In this document: positions 3,001-44,462 of the stretch, in pieces
Position numbering within the stretch: position 1 is the first letter of the stretch
How the letters are laid out: every line of letters begins with the position of its first letter
Origin: a virus
Lineage: Duplodnaviria > Heunggongvirae > Uroviricota > Caudoviricetes
Direction: 5' to 3' (one strand)
IMG/VR virus record: IMGVR_UViG_2737471993_000002
DNA: 64,000 nucleotides
Position numbers and translations under genes: made by a program
The notes under the pieces: generated by a model
Databases searched by the model: none
What the model saw: the letters and a program-made list of their open reading frames with translations, nothing else
What the model was told of the DNA's origin: nothing

Positions 3001-4435
3001 AGAGTCCACCGCGCGTGCCGATGGCGATGAAGCGTTAGCAAAGCGTGTCACTCAGCTGCAATCTAAGTTTGAAGGAGATATCAGCGCGGCGATTAGTACA
3101 GAACAGGAGGCTCGTACATCTGCCGATGAAGCTTTGACGAAACAAATAACTCAGCTTGAGTCGAAAGTAAGCAACGATATTGTCGCAGCCATTAAGGAAG
3201 AGCAAGAAGCCCGAGCAACGGAAGATTCGGCTCTGGCAAGCCAGATCACCCAACTTCAGGCAAAAGTTGATGATGATATTTCTGCTGCAATACGCAGTGA
3301 GCAGGAGGCTCGTGCGAGCGGAGACTCTGCGTTAGCTAAACAAATAAACCAGCTTCAAGCAAAGGTTGACGGTGATATATCCGCCGCCATCACTCAGGAG
3401 CAGGAGGCCAGAGCAAGTGCTGACGAGGCGCTCTCACGAGAAATTAACAGCCTGCGGGCGCAGACCGGAACTGACATTGCCGCAGCCGTTGCTGTAGAGA
3501 CAAAGGCAAGGACTGATGCCGATAGTGCATTGTCTACCCAGATTACGTCTCTTACAGCAAAAGCTAATGATCTCGAGGCGTCTCTTGCCAGAGAAACAAC
3601 GGCTCGTGCTGATGGTGATACCGCTTTAACAAAAGAGGTTTCAAGTTTAAAAGCACAGACAGCGAAAGATATTAGTGCGGCCGTTGCAGTTGAAACGCAG
3701 GCTCGAACTGATGCTGACTCGGCGTTGTCGTCTCAGATCACCAAGCTGACCTCTCAATACAAAGAGGATATTAAAGCGGCTGTAGCAACCGAAACGAAAA
3801 CGCGTACAGAGCAAGATGCTGCATTGGCGACTCAAATCACAAACTTAGAGTCTCAAACGGCAGCCAACATTTCCGCGGCGGTAACAACTGAAACGACAGC
3901 GAGAACGCAGGCAGATAATGCTCTGAGTGGGCGAATCGATACTCTGAAAGCAGAGGTGGATGGAAATACCGCGACAATTCAACAGCAGGCAACAGCTATT
4001 GCTGATACCAACAAAAAAGTGTCAACCGCGTGGACGTTGAAAATGGAAACTTCAACGAGCGGAGGGCAGAAGTATGTTGCTGGTATTGCGCTTGGTATCG
4101 ACACCACTGGCCTTTCTCAGTTTTTGGTGCAGGCTGACAGGTTTGGTTTGGTCAACTCTGTTAACGGGAAGATCACCACGCCATTTGTTATCGAAAACAG
4201 TATCGCCTATATGAATGGTGCGTATATCAAGGATGGCACAATCACCAATGCAAAAGTAGGCGATCTGCAATCTACCAATTTTGTTAGCGGTAGATCTGGA
4301 TGGCGGTTCGGCAAAAATGGAACGCTTGAGATCAACGGTAATAGCGGGGGTAATGGGCGACTGGTCATAAATGGTCAGCGGATTGACGTTTATGACGATA
4401 ACAACGTCCTACGAGTAAGAATTGGCCTTCTGTAA
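2..4435 (+). CDS. Host-specificity / central tail tip protein (lambda gpJ-like), 5'-partial at window edge
   Basis: Reading frame is open from nt 2 with no upstream stop (first Met at 107), so the gene starts outside the window. N-terminal region resembles J-type tail tip proteins; central part carries ~30-aa tandem coiled-coil repeats (..ISAAI..EQEAR..AD.AL..QITQL..) over nt ~3060-3960. Confidence 0.75.
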   Translation, partial: FDFVETPKSVNIQLKKTHYVTVSIDNDEADRVRVIMKFPSLRSIDKKTGDTNGTTVEYKFQIANGDSTFVDVVAEGEKSVGIKLTAKKTGVYYRSYELKLPKPGRAYKVRVVRITDDNSSQYLYNDTWVDSIGEIVDTPMNYPNSVLVGLKVNSEQFGSTMPSRSYLVRGLKIRVPSNYNESSNTYAGVWDGTFKLLSSSNPAWILFDLLTNARYGLGQYVSESMIDLGQLYQIGRYCDEEVDDGFGGKEKRFAINTQITSRQDAYRLIQDIAGAFRGMVFWAGGMVNIMQDSPSDPVMMFTNSNVKDGLFTYKGSARKDRPSVALVTYNNKEDGYKQNIEYVEDQDAMRRYGERKTEVVAFGCTSRGQAHRVGLWLLYTARMESDVITFTAGLDASFLMPGETVLIQNKYRAGKRNSGRIVAFTKNSVTLDAPVSLAKGGCFIRILNQEGKIVERDVLETGENITKVTFSKALSSAETPVLNGVWTITEPDLEPMRVRIVNIAQGETPGSFDITAVENNPSKYEAIDNGATLIPQNTTVLDPTYSKPSNLQITEGTYLSSPGNLSVKLTATWEGKSPEYWISWRRSDENNVSNWQSARVTEEQYEIVNVAENGRYDFQLYAVSFNGKKTEIISTVYQVLGTMTPPDAPTSLTAVGDYRNVILNWVNPDSVDLDHINVYASQTNNLDTAKLIAESASTTFTHAGLGDSETWYYWVRASNKRGMLSPPNSNLGTEATTRDVLSFLTGKITSSELGQALLEDINSKASQEAVDELNEHINQSVESLEGAVNDVKEDIAELDKQFSDNLADFEIKFNERSDALENAQTELKGEVSATIDKVNEAFEKIDATDAAIVEIENTVSEHDKALANTVEAIKAARDEAAALIAKESEARVEGDAANAKQLEVLQSTVEESSAAVEEMKKTVAEVDRASAELTTNIEALAKTNIDLALRQDEDQHKQMVNNAKIATTQKTFADDMSAMATKVEEIRVEIGEDIKASILEESTARADGDEALAKRVTQLQSKFEGDISAAISTEQEARTSADEALTKQITQLESKVSNDIVAAIKEEQEARATEDSALASQITQLQAKVDDDISAAIRSEQEARASGDSALAKQINQLQAKVDGDISAAITQEQEARASADEALSREINSLRAQTGTDIAAAVAVETKARTDADSALSTQITSLTAKANDLEASLARETTARADGDTALTKEVSSLKAQTAKDISAAVAVETQARTDADSALSSQITKLTSQYKEDIKAAVATETKTRTEQDAALATQITNLESQTAANISAAVTTETTARTQADNALSGRIDTLKAEVDGNTATIQQQATAIADTNKKVSTAWTLKMETSTSGGQKYVAGIALGIDTTGLSQFLVQADRFGLVNSVNGKITTPFVIENSIAYMNGAYIKDGTITNAKVGDLQSTNFVSGRSGWRFGKNGTLEINGNSGGNGRLVINGQRIDVYDDNNVLRVRIGLL

Positions 4436-4527: not shown

Positions 4528-7500
4528 ATGTGGTACAGGGAAGGTACTATCACATTTACACAGGGCAGCAATACTCTGGTTGGGGCAGGGACAGCCTGGA
4601 ACGTAACAGCTAATGGTGTGTTGCCGGGGATGATCGTCATTGGCCCCGACAATAAGCTGTATGAGATCAAGCGCGTAACCAGTGATACGAACATTGTTCT
4701 CTCAGAACCTTATACCGGCGAAACTCAGTCTGAAGTTCCGTGCCGAATCATTACGACCTATGAAGGCGACTTAACACAGTTTAGCGCGCGCTTTACAGCA
4801 CTAATGTCGCGTATGTCGGCTGATTCCAAGTCCATGCGCAGTTGGTTGACTGCTCTGGATGAGGTGACAATCGAGCGTGAAGACGGTACAGAAGTGACCG
4901 TTAAGCCGCTAATGCAGATCGTCAACGAGCACAACGAAAACGTTGAGTGGTATAAAAATAACACTGACGCGATTGATGCTGCTGGCGACAAAGCTCGTGA
5001 GGCGGCGGCCAGTGCTGCCGCAGCAGCAGAAAGCGCCAATACCGCTGGAGAAAAAGCCTCTCAAGCGTCTCAAAGTGCATCCGCTGCAGAGTCCTCAAAA
5101 AGCGCGGCGGCCACCAGTGCCGGTGCCGCGAAAACGTCTGAAACGAATGCTGCAGCGTCACAAAAATCTGCAGCCACTTCTGCATCCACCGCGACCACGA
5201 AGGCGTCAGAAGCTGCCACCTCAGCCCGGGATGCGGCGGCCTCAAAAGAGGCAGCGAAATCATCAGAAACGAGCGCAGCCTCGAGCGCCAGTAATGCCGC
5301 TTCCTCGGCAACGGCGGCAGGAAATTCCGCGAAGGCGGCAAAAACGTCCGAGACGAACGCCAGGTCTTCTGAAACGGCAGCGGGACAGAGCGCCTCGGCT
5401 GCGGCAGGCTCAAAAACAGCGGCTGCGTCGTCTGCCAGTGCCGCGTCAACAAGTGCCGGGCAGGCCTCAGCCAGTGCCACCGCCGCCGGAAAATCGGCAG
5501 AAAGTGCCGCATCGTCTGCTTCAACAGCCACAACGAAGGCTGGCGAAGCCACTGAACAGGCCAGCGCAGCAGCGAGGTCTGCTTCCGCAGCGAAGACATC
5601 CGAAACGAACGCGAAAGCGTCGGAAACCCGTGCAGAATCCTCAAAAACGGCAGCCGCATCGTCCGCCAGTTCGGCAGCGTCATCGGCATCATCTGCGTCT
5701 GCTTCAAAAGATGAGGCGACCAGACAGGCGTCAGCAGCGAAGGGCAGCGCCACGACGGCATCCACGAAAGCAACAGAGGCGGCAGGCAGTGCGACGGCAG
5801 CATCTCAGAGCAAAACTGCTGCTGAATCCGCTGCGACCCGTGCGGAAGCTGCTGCTGATCGTGCTGAAGAGATTGCCGGTGCAGTTGCGATGGAAGACGC
5901 AAGCCTTACAACTAAAGGTGTTGTGAAACTTAGCAGTGCTGTCGACAGCACCAGTGAATCGCTGGCCGCAACGCCAAAAGCAGTTAAAGTAGTCAATGAC
6001 AATGCGAACAGCAGGGTGCCATCTAACCGAAAAATTAACGGGAAAGCACTGACTGCGGATATCACATTAACGCCGAAAGATATTGGTACTTTAAATTCAA
6101 TAACGATGTCTTTCTCTGGCGGGGCCGGGTGGTTCAAACTGGCTACTGTTACAATGCCACAAGCGAGTTCCATCGTTTACATCGCATTGATTGGTGGCGC
6201 TGGTTACAACGTCGGCTCCCCACATCAGGCAGGCATTTCAGAACTGGTTCTACGAGCAGGCAATGGAAACCCCAAAGGGATTACAGGTGCTTTGTGGAAG
6301 CGTACAGCTGTCGGATTAACGAATTTCGCCTGGATCAACACATCCGGCGATACATATGATATTTACGTTGAGATTGGCAATTATGCGACTCGTGTAAATA
6401 TCCATTGGGATTGTACTGCAAATGCGACAGTTTCTATTTATACATCGCCAACATATTCAGCGAGTAAGCCTTCCAGCGTTACCGATGGTGTTGTTTATAC
6501 GATGTATAGCACACATCAGAAACCGACGCCGTTAGATATTGGAGCACTGCCAACAACCGGAGGAACAGTTTCAGGTCAGTTGTCTGTTACTGGTGGGATC
6601 ACCGGAACATTAAATGGTAATGCAAGTACAGCAACGAAATTGCAGACGGCAAGATCTATCGGTGGAGTTGGTTTCGACGGTTCTGCAAATATCAACCTTC
6701 CAGGTGTAAATACTACGGGTAATCAGAACACCACTGGTAATGCTGCAACTGCTACAAAACTTCAGACGGCAAGAACTATCGGCGGCGTGAGCTTTGATGG
6801 TACTGCGAATATTAATTTGCCAGGTGTTAATACGGCTGGTAATCAGAATACAACGGGCAACGCGGCTACTGCTACGAAGTTGCAGACTGCGCGTACTATC
6901 AATGGGGTGTCGTTTGACGGCTCGGCAAATATTTCCTTGTCGCCAGCAAATATAGGTTGCCCGGCATCTCCTACTGGTTGGTTAACTACAGGAAGTAATG
7001 GCGGAGCAATAACAACAGCACAGTTAGTGACGTTATTGCAAAATAATGGAGCATTTAACACAAAGTCATGGATTGCTCGATGTGCGTGGGCCTATGCCAA
7101 TAGTGCAACCATACCAAATAGTGAAACTGGTTGTGGCGTTATTCCATTGGCAGGAGCTGTTATAGAGGTATTTAATAACGGTAGTAGCTCAAACAATTAT
7201 ACGATCCGTATAACAACGGCCACAACGACGAGTGTCTCTGGTGCTCTCACTAATGCGGAGTTTATCTATGTATTTAATGGCACATATTATTCTCCGGGAT
7301 GGCGAAGAGTATATAACACGAAAAACAAACCAACAGCCTCTGATGTCGGTGCATTACCTCTTACCGGTGGTACATTATCTGGAGGTTTGACATCTTCTGG
7401 CGAGATCATTTCAAAATATGCAAATGGTTTCCGCATTGCTTACGGTAGCTTTGGGTTCTTTATCCGTAATGATGGATCGAACACATATTTCATGCTAACA

Positions 7501-40862: not shown

Positions 40863-41936
40863 ATGGCAAAAGGAAAATCCGCACTGGCACTTGCTCTGAA
40901 AAAGAAAATCGGTAGCAACGACGAAATTCAGAAAGTAACTCATTGGATTGATACAGGCTTTCCACCGTTAAACAAAGCTATTTCTGGTCGTTACGATGGC
41001 GGCTTCCCATGTGGTCGTATCGTCGAAGTATTCGGTCCTCCAAGTGCAGGGAAAACGTTCCTTGCAACAGCAGCGATGATCTCCGCTCAAAAACAAGATG
41101 GTCTGGCGGTATTCCTCGATCATGAAAACAGTTTTGACGTTGGCCTGGCTGTCGCCAATGGCCTGAACGCAGATGAGGATGACGGTCAGTGGGTATACAA
41201 GCAGCCAGATACCTTCGAAGACTCTGTAGAGTTGATCGGCACAATACTTAAATTGGTTCGTGATGAAGAGCTTATCCCCGAATCAGCACCAATCTGTATC
41301 GTGGCTGACTCTCTTGCGTCTATGGTTCCGAACTCCAAAGCCGAGAAGTTCGAAAAGATGGCTGAAGGCACTGCCAAAGACAAAGATCAGCTAAACATGA
41401 ACGACAATACGGCACTGGCTCGTGCGACGAGTGCGAACTTCCCTACTCTGGCTTTGTGGGCACGCAAATACAACGCCTGCATCATCTTCTTGAATCAGGT
41501 TCGCACAAAAATCGGTGTAATGTTTGGCGACCCTACTACGTCGCCAGGTGGAGATTCACCGAAGTTCTACGCTTCTGTACGTATCCGTCTTGGTGCATCG
41601 GTGATGAAGGATGGTAAAGAGAAGATCGGCCAGGACGTAGGCGCAGAATGCATCAAAAACAAAGTTGCACCACCGTATGGCAAATGCACCTGGAAATTCT
41701 ACTTCGATCCTACTCGTGGCCTCGACGTTATCGAATCGCTCGTCGAGTACATGCTGGAAGAAGGATACCTGCCAAAGAACGCCAGCGGGCGAGTTGAAAT
41801 TGGTGACAAGAAATACACCAAATCGCAGATCGTCGAGATGTATCGGGAGAAGCCACTGGCTGAAATCATTGCGGCTTTGCAGGCAATCGACGACCGAAGA
41901 GCAAAAGACAACCCCACCGAGTCAGTAGAAGAGTAA
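40863..41936 (+). CDS. RecA-like recombinase
   Basis: Walker A GPPSAGKT in RecA context (GRIVEVFGPPSAGKTFLATAAMISAQKQDGLAVFLDHENSFD), Walker B ICIVADSLASM; 357 aa. Confidence 0.8.
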   Translation: MAKGKSALALALKKKIGSNDEIQKVTHWIDTGFPPLNKAISGRYDGGFPCGRIVEVFGPPSAGKTFLATAAMISAQKQDGLAVFLDHENSFDVGLAVANGLNADEDDGQWVYKQPDTFEDSVELIGTILKLVRDEELIPESAPICIVADSLASMVPNSKAEKFEKMAEGTAKDKDQLNMNDNTALARATSANFPTLALWARKYNACIIFLNQVRTKIGVMFGDPTTSPGGDSPKFYASVRIRLGASVMKDGKEKIGQDVGAECIKNKVAPPYGKCTWKFYFDPTRGLDVIESLVEYMLEEGYLPKNASGRVEIGDKKYTKSQIVEMYREKPLAEIIAALQAIDDRRAKDNPTESVEE

Positions 41937-41941
41937 ACACA

Positions 41942-41966
41942 AGGCGTCCACAGGACGCCTTTTTTA
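41942..41966 (+). terminator. Rho-independent terminator
   Basis: AGGCGTCC-ACAG-GACGCCT followed by TTTTTT. Confidence 0.7.
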
Positions 41967-42028
41967 TCTCTTGAAAATATATAAGCACTTACTTATTATT
42001 TTCGCATAACAACCACATAGGAAAACAC

Positions 42029-42229
42029 ATGATCAAAATCTATCTATTGGCAGTAGCCACAGGCCTTTCAGTGGCTCTCATCTACGGTTTACTGGTTCCG
42101 TCGCTGATTTCTACCAAGAGTGATTTAGCCGTCATGTTTGGAGTTATCGTTGGTTTTGGTGCTCCTGTAATCGGTCTTATTGCTGGTCGTAAGTTTATCA
42201 ACTCATTAATCAAAGCAAAGGGGAAATAA
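42029..42229 (+). CDS. Small two-TM membrane protein
   Basis: 66 aa, two hydrophobic helices; directly upstream of SPFH lipoprotein gene. Confidence 0.5.
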   Translation: MIKIYLLAVATGLSVALIYGLLVPSLISTKSDLAVMFGVIVGFGAPVIGLIAGRKFINSLIKAKGK

Positions 42230-42232
42230 GTA

Positions 42233-43063
42233 ATGAAGAAAGGTTTACTTGCAGTTGCTCTGGCGGCTATTTGCACAATGGGTCTTACTGGCTGTGATCG
42301 CGTGGAGCCTGGATACGTTGGCATCAAAGTAAACAAATTAGGTGAAGACAAAGGGATTGGTGAAGTGGTTGGCGTTGGTCGCCAATGGACAGGTCTTAAC
42401 ACCGAACTTTACGTATTCCCGACCTTCAAACAAATGAAGACCTACGACGAGCCGTTCACATTCCAGATGAGTGACGGTACTGCTATTGGTCACAAAATTG
42501 GCGTTGCGTATCTGGTTAATCGTGACAAGGTAACGACGGTGTTCCAGACCTATCGCAAAGGCGTAGACGATATCACCGAATCAGATCTGCGTCAGAAAAT
42601 TGCCGACTCTCTAAACCGTTTGGCCAGCCGTATGACCACTGACTCATTTATCGACGGTGGTAAGGCACAATTGCTGGACAACGCACTGAAAGATATTCAG
42701 AAAGAGATGTCTCCGGTTGGTATTGAGGTACTGAGCCTGTCATGGGTTGGAAAGCCTGATTACCCAAAAACTGTCATTGAATCTATTAACGCCAAAGTAA
42801 CGGCTAACCAGCGTACTCTGCAACGTCAGCAGGAAGTTGAACAACGTAAAGCTGAGGCGAATATGCTACGTGAACAGGCTAATGGTGAAGCTGATGCTAT
42901 CCGTGCTCGTGCGCAAGCAGAAGCAGACGCCATTCGTCTGCGCGGTGAAGCTCTGCGTCAAAACCCGAACGTTATGGAACTGGAAGCCATCAATAAATGG
43001 AATGGCCAGTTACCGCAGTACATGACTCAAGGGGCTAACACTCCTTTCATTACAGTGAAATAA
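42233..43063 (+). CDS. SPFH/band-7 (prohibitin-like) lipoprotein
   Basis: Lipobox LTG-C signal; SPFH-like core followed by Ala/Glu/Arg-rich coiled coil (QRKAEANMLREQANGEADAIRARAQAEADAIRLRGEALRQ). Confidence 0.6.
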   Translation: MKKGLLAVALAAICTMGLTGCDRVEPGYVGIKVNKLGEDKGIGEVVGVGRQWTGLNTELYVFPTFKQMKTYDEPFTFQMSDGTAIGHKIGVAYLVNRDKVTTVFQTYRKGVDDITESDLRQKIADSLNRLASRMTTDSFIDGGKAQLLDNALKDIQKEMSPVGIEVLSLSWVGKPDYPKTVIESINAKVTANQRTLQRQQEVEQRKAEANMLREQANGEADAIRARAQAEADAIRLRGEALRQNPNVMELEAINKWNGQLPQYMTQGANTPFITVK

Positions 43064-43079: not shown

Positions 43080-43105
43080 AGGCGTCCAGTTGGACGCCTT
43101 TTTTA
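43080..43105 (+). terminator. Rho-independent terminator
   Basis: AGGCGTCC-AGTT-GGACGCCT followed by TTTTT. Confidence 0.7.
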
Positions 43106-43154
43106 TCGCAATTATCTTATTAAGAAAACAATTTGTTTAAAAGGATAAGAAAAC

Positions 43155-43580
43155 ATGACAGCTATTAAGAAACTCTACGATGCCGCAAACGTGGCTCTGG
43201 ATGTTATTGATGATGAAGCAGCAAAAGGCTTTCCTGAACCTGATTGGGCGCATCAGCTACGAAACGCTATCGCCGAAATGAATCCACCAGATCCGACCAC
43301 CGACGAGACAGACTGGCAGCGATTTATCCGTATGTACGCTCAGGAAATAGGTCCAACGCCAACGGCAGAGCAAGCAATGCTGCTGAAATACTTCAAAGAG
43401 GCGGGAGAGGATTTACCAATTGATGACTCAGCATATTGGTTCCACTGCGCATGGCGTAAGTATGACGTGATATTCACACAAGGCATGGGGAGCAAAGATA
43501 TGGTTGTGTGGCATCTACTCCATATAGACACAGCCGTTGACAGAGTTATTGAACAGTTTTTCCCTAAACAAGAAGATTGA
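43155..43580 (+). CDS. Hypothetical protein
   Basis: 141 aa; preceded by the AAACAATTTGTTTAAA palindrome (43122-43141). Confidence 0.5.
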   Translation: MTAIKKLYDAANVALDVIDDEAAKGFPEPDWAHQLRNAIAEMNPPDPTTDETDWQRFIRMYAQEIGPTPTAEQAMLLKYFKEAGEDLPIDDSAYWFHCAWRKYDVIFTQGMGSKDMVVWHLLHIDTAVDRVIEQFFPKQED

Positions 43581-43950: not shown

Positions 43951-44130
43951 ATGAAGATTTTTATTGAATACTTGTTACTCATCGTTTCAATAGCTTTTGT
44001 CATCGACTGCATTTTCACCGGTGTCATTCGTAAAGTCTTTTCCCCGGTGAACGACGTAGTCATAAACGCTTTGGCTATCGTGCTCGTATTTAATTCAGCA
44101 TTTGATGTAATCAAAGAGGTGGCAGCATGA
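43951..44130 (+). CDS. Small membrane protein (59 aa), not in ORF track
   Basis: ATG at 43951; two hydrophobic segments; stop overlaps next ATG (ATGA). Confidence 0.4.
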   Translation: MKIFIEYLLLIVSIAFVIDCIFTGVIRKVFSPVNDVVINALAIVLVFNSAFDVIKEVAA

Positions 44131-44462
44131 AGGCCATCCCATTCGCGCTGTTGTTCCTTTCTTCGATCGTTGTGGCCGACACCACTGTTTATCAGTGTGA
44201 AATGTCTGTAGCCGACGTTAAGAATGGCGCTCTTACCGACGTCATAAAAGCACCATATGGAGCGATGGTCGTAGACAGCGGCGACCAGTTCTATGTTGTG
44301 CGTGACGATCGAGTGTTGTCATCCCCATATCTCACAAATCGTAATGGCAAATTAACCGGCGTCGGAGAAGACCACTTCGTATACAACAAATACAAGGGCT
44401 TCTATGGTGTTCACGCTTCTCAGCAAAGCTACCTTTTCGATGACTGCAAGGAGGTTGGATAA
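44127..44462 (+). CDS. Secreted small protein
   Basis: Signal peptide MKAIPFALLFLSSIVVA; 111 aa. Confidence 0.5.
   Translation: MKAIPFALLFLSSIVVADTTVYQCEMSVADVKNGALTDVIKAPYGAMVVDSGDQFYVVRDDRVLSSPYLTNRNGKLTGVGEDHFVYNKYKGFYGVHASQQSYLFDDCKEVG

Follow-up and report, generated by a model that had tools for sequence, protein, structure and literature searches.

A stretch of 64,000 nt of a virus of the class Caudoviricetes (IMG/VR virus record IMGVR_UViG_2737471993_000002), hereafter called the window, belongs to an SSU5-type phage-plasmid, in agreement with the phage origin read from the letters by an initial annotation. Positions 42029-43063 of the window host two adjacent genes, the first encoding a 66-aa hydrophobic protein, the second a 276-aa lipoprotein of the SPFH/Band-7 superfamily. 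The two genes make up an accessory cassette, which probably encodes a periplasm-facing scaffold of the inner membrane, formed by the SPFH protein and a detachable transmembrane subunit. The fold of the lipoprotein, its lipobox, the pairing of the genes, their natural fusions, the boundaries of the cassette and its independent transcription in a relative are supported directly. Assembly into an oligomeric cage, lipidation, location in the inner membrane and 1:1 contact of the lipoprotein with its partner are predicted on the basis of the sequences, of a model of the monomer and of genome comparisons. The SPFH identity itself is not new, as public records already annotate the gene as encoding an SPFH-domain protein.

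The SPFH-like core proposed in the initial annotation is borne out by a match to the Pfam Band_7 family (PF01145) with a score of 106.2 bits, where the gathering threshold is 23.6 (E 2.6e-30; the alignment spans positions 2-176 of the 176 in the profile), and by full-length fold matches. Residues 208-266 weakly match Flotillin in Pfam. Each of the two cassette genes is real, being matched by a PHROG family, phrog_200 (lipoprotein; E 3e-108) for the SPFH protein and phrog_1130 (membrane protein; E 2.1e-25) for the small partner; neither family has an experimentally based function. The AlphaFold2 model of the SPFH monomer (mean predicted local distance difference test, pLDDT, 76; 82-95 over residues 61-210) features the SPFH core, followed by one 65-residue helix (residues 179-243), the single predicted helix which corresponds to the Ala/Glu/Arg coiled coil earlier noticed, and by a short helix at residues 245-254. 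Over nearly the full chain, the model was matched by Foldseek to erlin1/2, HflK/C, prohibitin1/2, stomatin, flotillin and QmcA-YbbJ (E 1e-12 to 1e-6). W256 is one of only two residues invariant among 66 diverse family members (alignment A2). The gene is often annotated as "serine protease", a label for which the sequence offered no basis.

The N-terminus of the SPFH protein (MKKGLLAVALAAICTMGLTG-C21-D22) is a lipoprotein signal with the lipobox LTGC, as the initial reading of the gene as a lipoprotein implied at the sequence level. It comprises a basic n-region, a hydrophobic h-region and a lipobox near residue 20 (M-KK-GLLAVALAAICTMG-LTG-C21). Residues C21, D22 and R23 are each conserved in at least 90% of 30 enterobacterial homologues (alignment A1), and the lipobox Cys is retained in 100/125 unfused and 18/18 fused representatives of the family. 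In Enterobacterales an Asp at position +2 is a Lol-avoidance signal, leading to retention in the inner membrane.

The product of the small gene does have the two hydrophobic segments attributed to it (approximately residues 1-23 and 31-53 by hydropathy). Its C-terminal tail is basic (GRKFINSLIKAKGK), and according to the positive-inside rule both ends are therefore predicted to be cytoplasmic, connected by a short periplasmic turn, PSLISTKSD. The motif P-x-L-[IV]-S is positioned at the periplasmic end of the first helix, and is present in the N-terminal domain of the fusions described below as well. Residues P24 and S28 are invariant in 73/73 distinct homologues, and G38 is found in 70/73, figures affected by some circularity, as the 73 sequences were chosen with the partner profile. 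The small protein has no relative in Pfam, NCBIfam or PADLOC, is assigned to no named family by a word-indexed homologue search, and a profile search of the PDB gave no relative, YbbJ included. The possibility that the partner is an NfeD protein was rejected: 20 diverse partners gave scattered chance hits in Pfam, none to NfeD, and the search of the PDB was negative.

The small gene is an almost constant companion of the SPFH gene. Co-occurrence, a check suggested at the outset, was monitored in phages and in cellular genomes. A small ORF (open reading frame) with two transmembrane segments lies just upstream of the SPFH gene in 82/82 phage loci read, including the P2-like phage P88, and phiP27 and RCS47, in which the ORF is unannotated. 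The RefSeq records of the latter two carry no annotation of the partner genes at 4762-4950 (phiP27, locus L165) and 3738-3974 (RCS47, locus L166). One genome per species was scanned with a search seeded with the 12-sequence alignment A3, the 66-sequence alignment A2 being too diverse to serve as seed; the partner profile was built from the partners found at phage loci and from the N-terminal parts of fused proteins. In 70/80 genome loci, distributed over Enterobacterales, Xanthomonadales, Burkholderiales, Leptospira, Bacteroidota, Chloroflexota and other groups, the profile gave a single hit, either directly upstream on the same strand or fused. Reading the remaining loci by eye added two Sutterella partners and one fusion, which brings the count to about 73 of 79 loci with a partner.

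Adjacency is not strict in all instances. In Salmonella phage NINP13076 (Vequintavirinae; locus L171, 2142-2493) a 54-aa non-membrane ORF resides between the partner and SPFH genes, and immediate contact of the two genes is therefore not universal. In prophage copies found in Shigella flexneri and E. coli chromosomes (loci L087, 2997-4001, and L088, 2988-4001) about 770 bp without obvious ORF separate the genes, and the C-terminus of the partner is altered; this looks like an insertion splitting the pair.

In-frame fusions of the two genes were searched among the best 150 relatives resulting from an exhaustive search of 1.84 billion cluster representatives, and were found in 18 of them. The order of the parts is the same: the motif-bearing domain comes first, then a basic linker, then a third hydrophobic helix with the lipobox Cys at its end, and finally the SPFH protein. 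Fusions are interspersed among unfused relatives; the 120 closest relatives listed for one of them, P0157, which is present on three independent contigs, are all unfused. Their scattered pattern indicates that fusion arose repeatedly, which is classic evidence of two proteins working together, and on these comparisons of sequences the small protein is probably a genuine second subunit of the SPFH lipoprotein. A hairpin with both ends inside, followed by a third helix running from the inside to the outside, would place the SPFH domain of the fusions at the periplasmic face of the inner membrane. Since all 18 keep a canonical lipobox Cys after the third helix, fusions may be polyproteins, from which signal peptidase II releases the mature lipoprotein, leaving a fragment with three helices. 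P0157 comes after a PDDEXK exonuclease gene in a phage-like early region. Modelling of this fusion as a proxy of the complex was dropped, as its nearest relatives are unfused and the MAFFT alignment set the partners in the middle of the SPFH domain.

Features of the cassette are listed in Table 1. The two genes, both on the + strand, are separated by 3 nt (TAA-gta-ATG), so that the start of the lipoprotein gene falls 4 nt past the last base of the preceding stop, exactly as first reported. The ribosome-binding site of the SPFH gene (AAGGGG) sits within the 3' end of the small gene, and for this overlap the two genes are probably translationally coupled. Bracketing by terminators, also claimed at first, holds with one small correction: two hairpins flank the genes, the upstream one being the terminator of the preceding RecA gene, and the cassette proper starts directly after it. 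The scanned region contains 6 terminator-like sites, against 1.8 +/- 1.6 in shuffled sequences. The pattern GGCGTCC-N3/4-GGACGCCTTTTTTATC is common to both hairpins, occurs only 2 times in the 64-kb window, and is expected 0 times by chance. The left hairpin forms a 16-nt exact direct repeat with the region 43092-43107. The promoter-like element which follows it is kept in SSU5, although the flanks are only ~79% identical. A 14-nt inverted repeat (42126-42139 and 43151-43164) was judged to be a chance match.

Table 1. Features of the SPFH cassette and their position in the window.
Feature	Coordinates	Strand	Basis and remarks
Left terminator hairpin, GGCGTCC-ACA-GGACGCC + T-run	41941..41968 (hairpin 41941-41961)	+	terminator scan; left edge of the cassette
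Sigma-70-like promoter, TTGAAA-17-TATTAT, 10/12 matches	41971..41999	+	promoter scan; promoter function predicted
Small partner, 66 aa, two-transmembrane hairpin, predicted N-in/C-in	42029..42229	+	ORF, hydropathy, phrog_1130
Codons of the invariant P-x-L-[IV]-S motif, residues 24-28	42098..42112	+	partner alignment
SPFH/Band-7 lipoprotein precursor, 276 aa	42233..43063	+	Pfam, PHROG, AlphaFold2, Foldseek, dN/dS
Lipoprotein signal peptide ending with the lipobox L-T-G-C21	42233..42295	+	sequence, conservation in homologues; lipidation and sorting predicted
SPFH domain, residues 23-209	42299..42859	+	Pfam envelope; strands and helices of the model
Long Ala/Glu/Arg/Gln-rich helix 179-243 and short helix 245-254	42767..42994	+	model; coiled-coil wall element of SPFH cages
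C-terminal K-W-N-G-x-L-P motif	42995..43015	+	alignments A1 and A2; cage-closing role proposed by analogy with solved cages
Right terminator hairpin, GGCGTCC-AGTT-GGACGCC + T-run	43080..43107 (hairpin 43080-43099)	+	terminator scan; right edge of the cassette

The genes found upstream encode a 5'-3' exonuclease, an 88-aa ORF product and a RecA/UvsX-type recombinase, the gene found downstream a DUF7238 protein. The region is 95-99% identical to the corresponding DNA of Escherichia phages CMS-2020a, PhiR41_1 and Cyrano, and of E. coli plasmids of 100-114 kb. In the SSU5-like Klebsiella phage ST13-OXA48phi12.3 the recombinase gene is followed by one copy of the hairpin, without the SPFH pair. The left flank of this hairpin aligns with the upstream junction of the window, the right flank with the downstream junctions of both the window and SSU5. 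The unit thus comprises the promoter-like site, the small gene, the lipoprotein gene and the second hairpin, and has been either inserted, or lost from the Klebsiella phage through recombination between the repeats. In PLSDB, the whole query region is found in 343 records, the recombinase end without the cassette in hundreds of Klebsiella SSU5-type plasmids. Like a moron, the pair has a promoter-like site and a terminator of its own, and is located between genes which are adjacent in related phages.

The transcription of the cassette could be followed in Cyrano, the SPFH protein of which is 100% identical to that of the window (tblastn). Expression of Cyrano genes in E. coli LF82, measured by RNA-seq, is reported as log2(fpkm+5), where fpkm are fragments per kilobase per million, with two values per condition (PMC9928086, S1 Table). 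From stationary phase in lysogeny broth (LB) to 6 h in THP1 macrophages, the small gene CYRAN_56 moves from 2.32/2.32 to 7.61/7.70 and the SPFH gene CYRAN_57 from 4.30/3.02 to 7.25/7.42, the upstream RecA gene from 3.56/3.12 to 4.06/4.05 and the downstream CYRAN_58 from 2.69/2.32 to 4.20/3.94 (PMC9928086). Calculated from these values, expression of the pair is 13- to 40-fold higher inside macrophages than in LB, while the neighbours are flat. In Cyrano the pair thus behaves as a transcription unit of its own, subject to regulation and not constitutively active in the lysogen, in keeping with the promoter-like site and the terminators. A perfect inverted repeat, ATAAG-N6-CTTAT, overlaps the -10 hexamer (41981-41996), is also kept in SSU5 (ATAAGTACTTACTTAT), and may be the operator for whatever silences the pair in LB.

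A second small envelope pair is found in the window, made up by a 59-aa hydrophobic protein (43951-44130) and a 111-aa protein with an N-terminal signal-like sequence (44127-44462). CYRAN_60 and CYRAN_61, which correspond to them in position and length, go from 2.3-2.8 log2(fpkm+5) in LB to 8.3-8.8 in macrophages, a stronger rise than that of the SPFH pair. ORFs of the same length as the 59-aa and 111-aa pair are kept in the Klebsiella phage lacking the SPFH cassette.

The two genes of the cassette diverge at different rates. In the comparison with SSU5, the SPFH gene features a nonsynonymous divergence (dN) of 0.043 and a synonymous divergence (dS) of 1.74, with a dN/dS ratio (omega) of 0.025, the neighbouring recombinase gene an omega of 0.019; the low ratio denotes a real gene under strong purifying selection. 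The small gene has a dN of 0.31 relative to SSU5, with saturated synonymous sites, and an omega of ~0.2 relative to a closer allele, L047. Positive selection on the partner, a possibility raised by a dN ~7-fold above that of the SPFH gene, is not supported, given the omega of ~0.2. At the protein level, small and SPFH proteins are 59% and 94% identical between the window and SSU5, 32% and 92% between phiP27 and RCS47, 46% and 93.5% between P88 and RCS47. The L047 allele is 98-100% identical to the window in the RecA gene up to position 41840, and 100% in the SPFH gene, but only 65-88% in the patch 41840-42260, which includes hairpin, promoter and small gene. This pattern indicates a recombinational allele swap. 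The partner is constrained at the motif, otherwise free to vary, and exchanged as a unit.

The family is large, 2,816 cluster representatives (clusters at 50% identity) being retrieved at E <= 1e-3, and 195 at E <= 1e-30. SPFH genes of the family reside in 373/50,697 phage records. Temperate carriers include SSU5-types, P1-types, the P2-like P88, phiP27, Stx2 phages, Klebsiella prophages and Burkholderia phi1026b; strictly virulent carriers include the N4-like Erwinia S6, Vequintavirinae, Ounavirinae, Pseudomonas Bruynoghevirus, Caulobacter phiCbK-like phages and Myxococcus Mx1. One crAss-like phage and Lak megaphages are further carriers. N4-like and Vequintavirinae loci have the same partner (E ~1e-16). 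Among complete E. coli genomes 737/5,426 have a copy, about half chromosomal and half plasmid-borne. Yersinia pestis plasmids of pMT1 size carry the recombinase-SPFH region at ~79% identity, as in strain 91001 (H125, NC_005815.1, 53655-56280), and 63 Yersinia plasmid records were counted. In more than 20 genomes of Dyella and other Rhodanobacteraceae the pair lies in one conserved chromosomal context, with nrdAB and a gene for a BlaI-type repressor, and is therefore an ordinary cellular gene there.

The location of the pair varies among temperate phages. In P88 it belongs to the early operon, flanked by cox and gene A; in phiP27 it occurs in the early region, on the xis/int side. P1-like phage-plasmids have the pair between upl and a tRNA gene upstream of ban, the slot occupied in P1 by tciABC (L166, 3738-4782 in RCS47; L176, 12234-12930 for tciA-tciC in P1), downstream of the C1-controlled ban promoters. 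P1 tciA-tciB-tciC are cell-envelope accessory genes, annotated as involved in tellurite or colicin resistance or in cell-division inhibition; their products are unrelated to the SPFH pair (TciA is TerB-like), and the likeness is positional only.

Among named families, the closest relatives at the sequence level are HflK and HflC, the partners of FtsH (PDB 7VHP, 7VHQ, 7WI3, 9CZ2), which share with the cassette protein the SPFH1/2 core, the long wall helix and the C-terminal cap, and face the periplasm, as the cassette protein does by prediction. The lipoprotein scores 30.2 bits (E 2e-7) with the HflC equivalog TIGR01932, whose cut-off is 134.4, and 18.7 bits with the HflK equivalog TIGR01933, whose cut-off is 159.4, and thus belongs to neither; the sequence match to 7vhq_E is weak (E 0.007). 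HflK/HflC are two paralogues with N-terminal transmembrane anchors, whereas the cassette features one SPFH gene, a lipid anchor and a dedicated 66-aa partner. SPFH-NfeD operons (QmcA-YbbJ, PDB 8Z5G, Foldseek rank 37; stomatin/NfeD) likewise associate an SPFH gene to a gene for a small polytopic membrane protein, but the partner in the cassette is a bare two-helix hairpin, with an invariant motif of its own and without NfeD domain. QmcA faces the cytoplasm, whereas the cassette SPFH protein is predicted to be exported. The best full-length fold matches are erlin1/2, prohibitin1/2, stomatin and flotillin (E 1e-12 to 1e-7, TM-score ~0.5-0.58). These eukaryotic SPFH proteins all close into rings or cages that cover a patch of membrane; they are 14-18% identical to the cassette protein, are anchored by a hairpin, a transmembrane helix or acylation, have a cytoplasmic or lumenal orientation, and lack a comparable small partner. 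A lysis pair of the spanin type was considered and rejected because of the SPFH fold, the +2 Asp, which is against outer-membrane sorting, and the position of the genes, never found in a lysis cassette.

Literature data on phage SPFH proteins are scanty. A full-text search found no functional study of the SPFH/small-partner pair, E. coli B proteomics papers name SPFH in reference lists alone, and the authors of a recent phage paper state that it is unclear why a phage should carry a gene for an SPFH lipoprotein (PMC13239085). The Pasteurella multocida prophage protein PM0222 (Pmorf0222) is HflK/C-like, has a size of 25-35 kDa, is a TLR1/2 agonist and is found in outer-membrane vesicles (PMC9872710); it is the sole phage-borne SPFH protein with a reported phenotype that we found, and a possible member of the same subfamily. 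P0154, suspected to be a link to PM0222, proved to be a Serratia sequence.

These data may be accommodated in the following scheme. The lipoprotein would be exported, receive its lipid at Cys21, and stay anchored in the outer leaflet of the inner membrane. Oligomerization through the long helix and the C-terminal KWNGxLP tail would give rise to a ring or cage surrounding a membrane patch, a structure which is proposed because every SPFH protein solved so far forms one. The 66-aa hairpin protein would be the integral-membrane subunit, with the P-x-L-[IV]-S turn at the periplasmic surface of the membrane, by the SPFH domain, and would supply a bilayer-spanning fence, replacing the N-terminal helices of HflK/C and QmcA. 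The module is probably an old cellular one, acquired by many temperate and virulent phages. As to its role, the cassette possibly serves the phage by conditioning or insulating the inner membrane of the host in the course of infection or under stress; this is a tentative reading, which in our estimate ranks above the tuning of FtsH and lysogeny. A general membrane-stabilizing role fits with the cellular distribution of the family and the induction within macrophages.

Several data do not match the picture of a lipid-anchored, autonomous two-subunit scaffold. Six scanned loci (Ignavibacteria, Kapaibacteria, Cytophagales, and one metagenome-assembled genome) have no partner, which is missing in the most distant relatives and in some phages, such as Erwinia M7, as well; the SPFH protein can therefore work without it. 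An Asp at +2 followed by Arg may retain lipoproteins in the inner membrane more weakly than Asp-Asp or Asp-Glu, and the confidence of the model is only moderate in the N-terminal third of the protein (pLDDT 55-65 at residues 11-60). P1-like, P2-like and lambdoid phages carry the pair within early operons, without terminators of its own, and the notion of an autonomous cassette hence applies to the SSU5 context only. In Cyrano the pair is silent in LB, failed the moron criterion of the authors, and is not included in their list of morons (PMC9928086). The Pasteurella protein, a possible relative, was found in vesicles derived from the outer membrane (PMC9872710).

The speculation of the initial annotation, that the SPFH protein acts on FtsH, implies that the cage engages the host protease as HflK/C does, capturing its periplasmic and transmembrane portion or competing for it. 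This would alter the turnover of substrates such as CII/CIII-type phage regulators, LpxC and RpoH, and hence the choice between lysis and lysogeny or the physiology of the host. To our knowledge, HflK/C are the only E. coli SPFH proteins with SPFH domains facing the periplasm, and FtsH stays a possible client for the orientation that the cassette protein is predicted to share with them. HflK/HflC are moreover the best, though weak, sequence relatives among named families and solved structures, their complexes with FtsH are among the top fold matches, and in the lambdoid phages phiP27 and Stx2 the gene resides on the int/xis side of the early region, where lambda keeps cIII. Yet the scores fall well short of the equivalog thresholds for HflK and HflC, the fold is matched no less well by erlin and prohibitin than by HflK/C, and a single SPFH gene, a lipid anchor and an unrelated partner set the cassette apart from the HflK/C system. 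Many carriers are strictly virulent, and make no lysogeny decision; P1-like, P2-like and SSU5-like phages are not known to use a CII/FtsH switch. The spread of the family over virulent phages, E. coli genomes and Dyella chromosomes, with a conserved locus in the latter and in other Rhodanobacteraceae, argues against a role specific to lysogeny or FtsH. We regard modulation of FtsH as improbable, and a link to FtsH and lysogeny as unlikely to be the general role of the cassette. A function in superinfection exclusion, or in other conflicts, is doubtful too, if somewhat less so. The cage would sequester or block an inner-membrane component needed by incoming phage DNA, by a colicin or by an abortive-infection effector of the host, and specificity would come from the small partner, which evolves fast and can be exchanged. 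T4 Imm and Sp and T5 Llp are early small membrane proteins or lipoproteins which act at the envelope and exclude other phages, an analogy limited to function, as neither sequence nor fold is related to those of the SPFH pair. Exclusion is consistent with the residence of the pair in variable accessory slots of unrelated temperate phages (SSU5-types, P1-types, P88, phiP27), its positions in early operons, its presence in virulent phages too, the divergence of the small gene, far faster than that of the SPFH gene, and the exchange of alleles at the L047 patch. Still, the small gene is under purifying selection (omega ~0.2 vs L047), and fast divergence alone is not a proof of conflict, because lipid-facing residues of transmembrane segments tolerate change. 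In Dyella the conserved surroundings are of a housekeeping kind and do not resemble a defence island, neither protein matches any defence model of PADLOC-DB 2.0 at E <= 0.1, and the literature search revealed no exclusion phenotype.

Least probable of all, and by us given hardly any credit, is that the lipoprotein ends up in the outer membrane, or leaves the cell in vesicles, and acts on the animal host through virulence or immune stimulation. TLR1/2 is the receptor pair for triacylated lipoproteins. The Pasteurella protein is vesicle-borne and elicits TLR1/2 signalling, and its deletion attenuates virulence (PMC9872710), a precedent set by a protein which is a possible member of the same subfamily. 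The Cyrano copy is induced within macrophages, and pMT1-type plasmids of Yersinia pestis carry the cassette. By contrast, a location in the inner membrane is favoured by the Asp at +2 and by the fusions, which carry an inner-membrane hairpin; members of the family are also plentiful among environmental bacteria and in virulent phages whose hosts are non-pathogens (Caulobacter, Myxococcus, Erwinia).

The recombinase gene next to the cassette deserves mention. In the window the RecA/UvsX-type recombinase (40863-41936) is 357 aa long, whereas the coding sequence of Cyrano (L001, 3672-6011) is annotated as encoding 779 aa, and relatives in PLSDB are annotated as "intein-containing recombinase RecA" or "LAGLIDADG family homing endonuclease". 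Residues 65-357 of the window protein match positions 487-779 of phrog_9666. The gene of the window appears to be an intein-free allele of a gene that has an intein in close relatives.

SPFH cages fence membrane patches, and the arrangements known in bacteria join HflK/C to FtsH, or QmcA to an NfeD protein. The periplasm-facing scaffold that we favour would be a third arrangement, in which a lipid-anchored SPFH protein is associated with a minimal two-helix partner, outside curated families. The pairing with a two-helix protein other than NfeD, the recurrent fusions, the lipid-anchored periplasmic arrangement and the breadth of distribution over virulent and temperate phages appear to be undescribed. 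One may further imagine, as a speculation which we hold to be unlikely, a programmable periplasmic corral, in which the lipoprotein forms the cage and the hypervariable partner picks the inner-membrane protein to be trapped; this may be the DNA-entry channel of a rival phage, an abortive-infection pore, or FtsH. If true, such a corral would be a previously unrecognized class of phage exclusion or counter-defence device, common to temperate phages and virulent ones. Finding a phenotype would account for an accessory gene that is widespread among the phages and phage-plasmids of clinical Enterobacterales.

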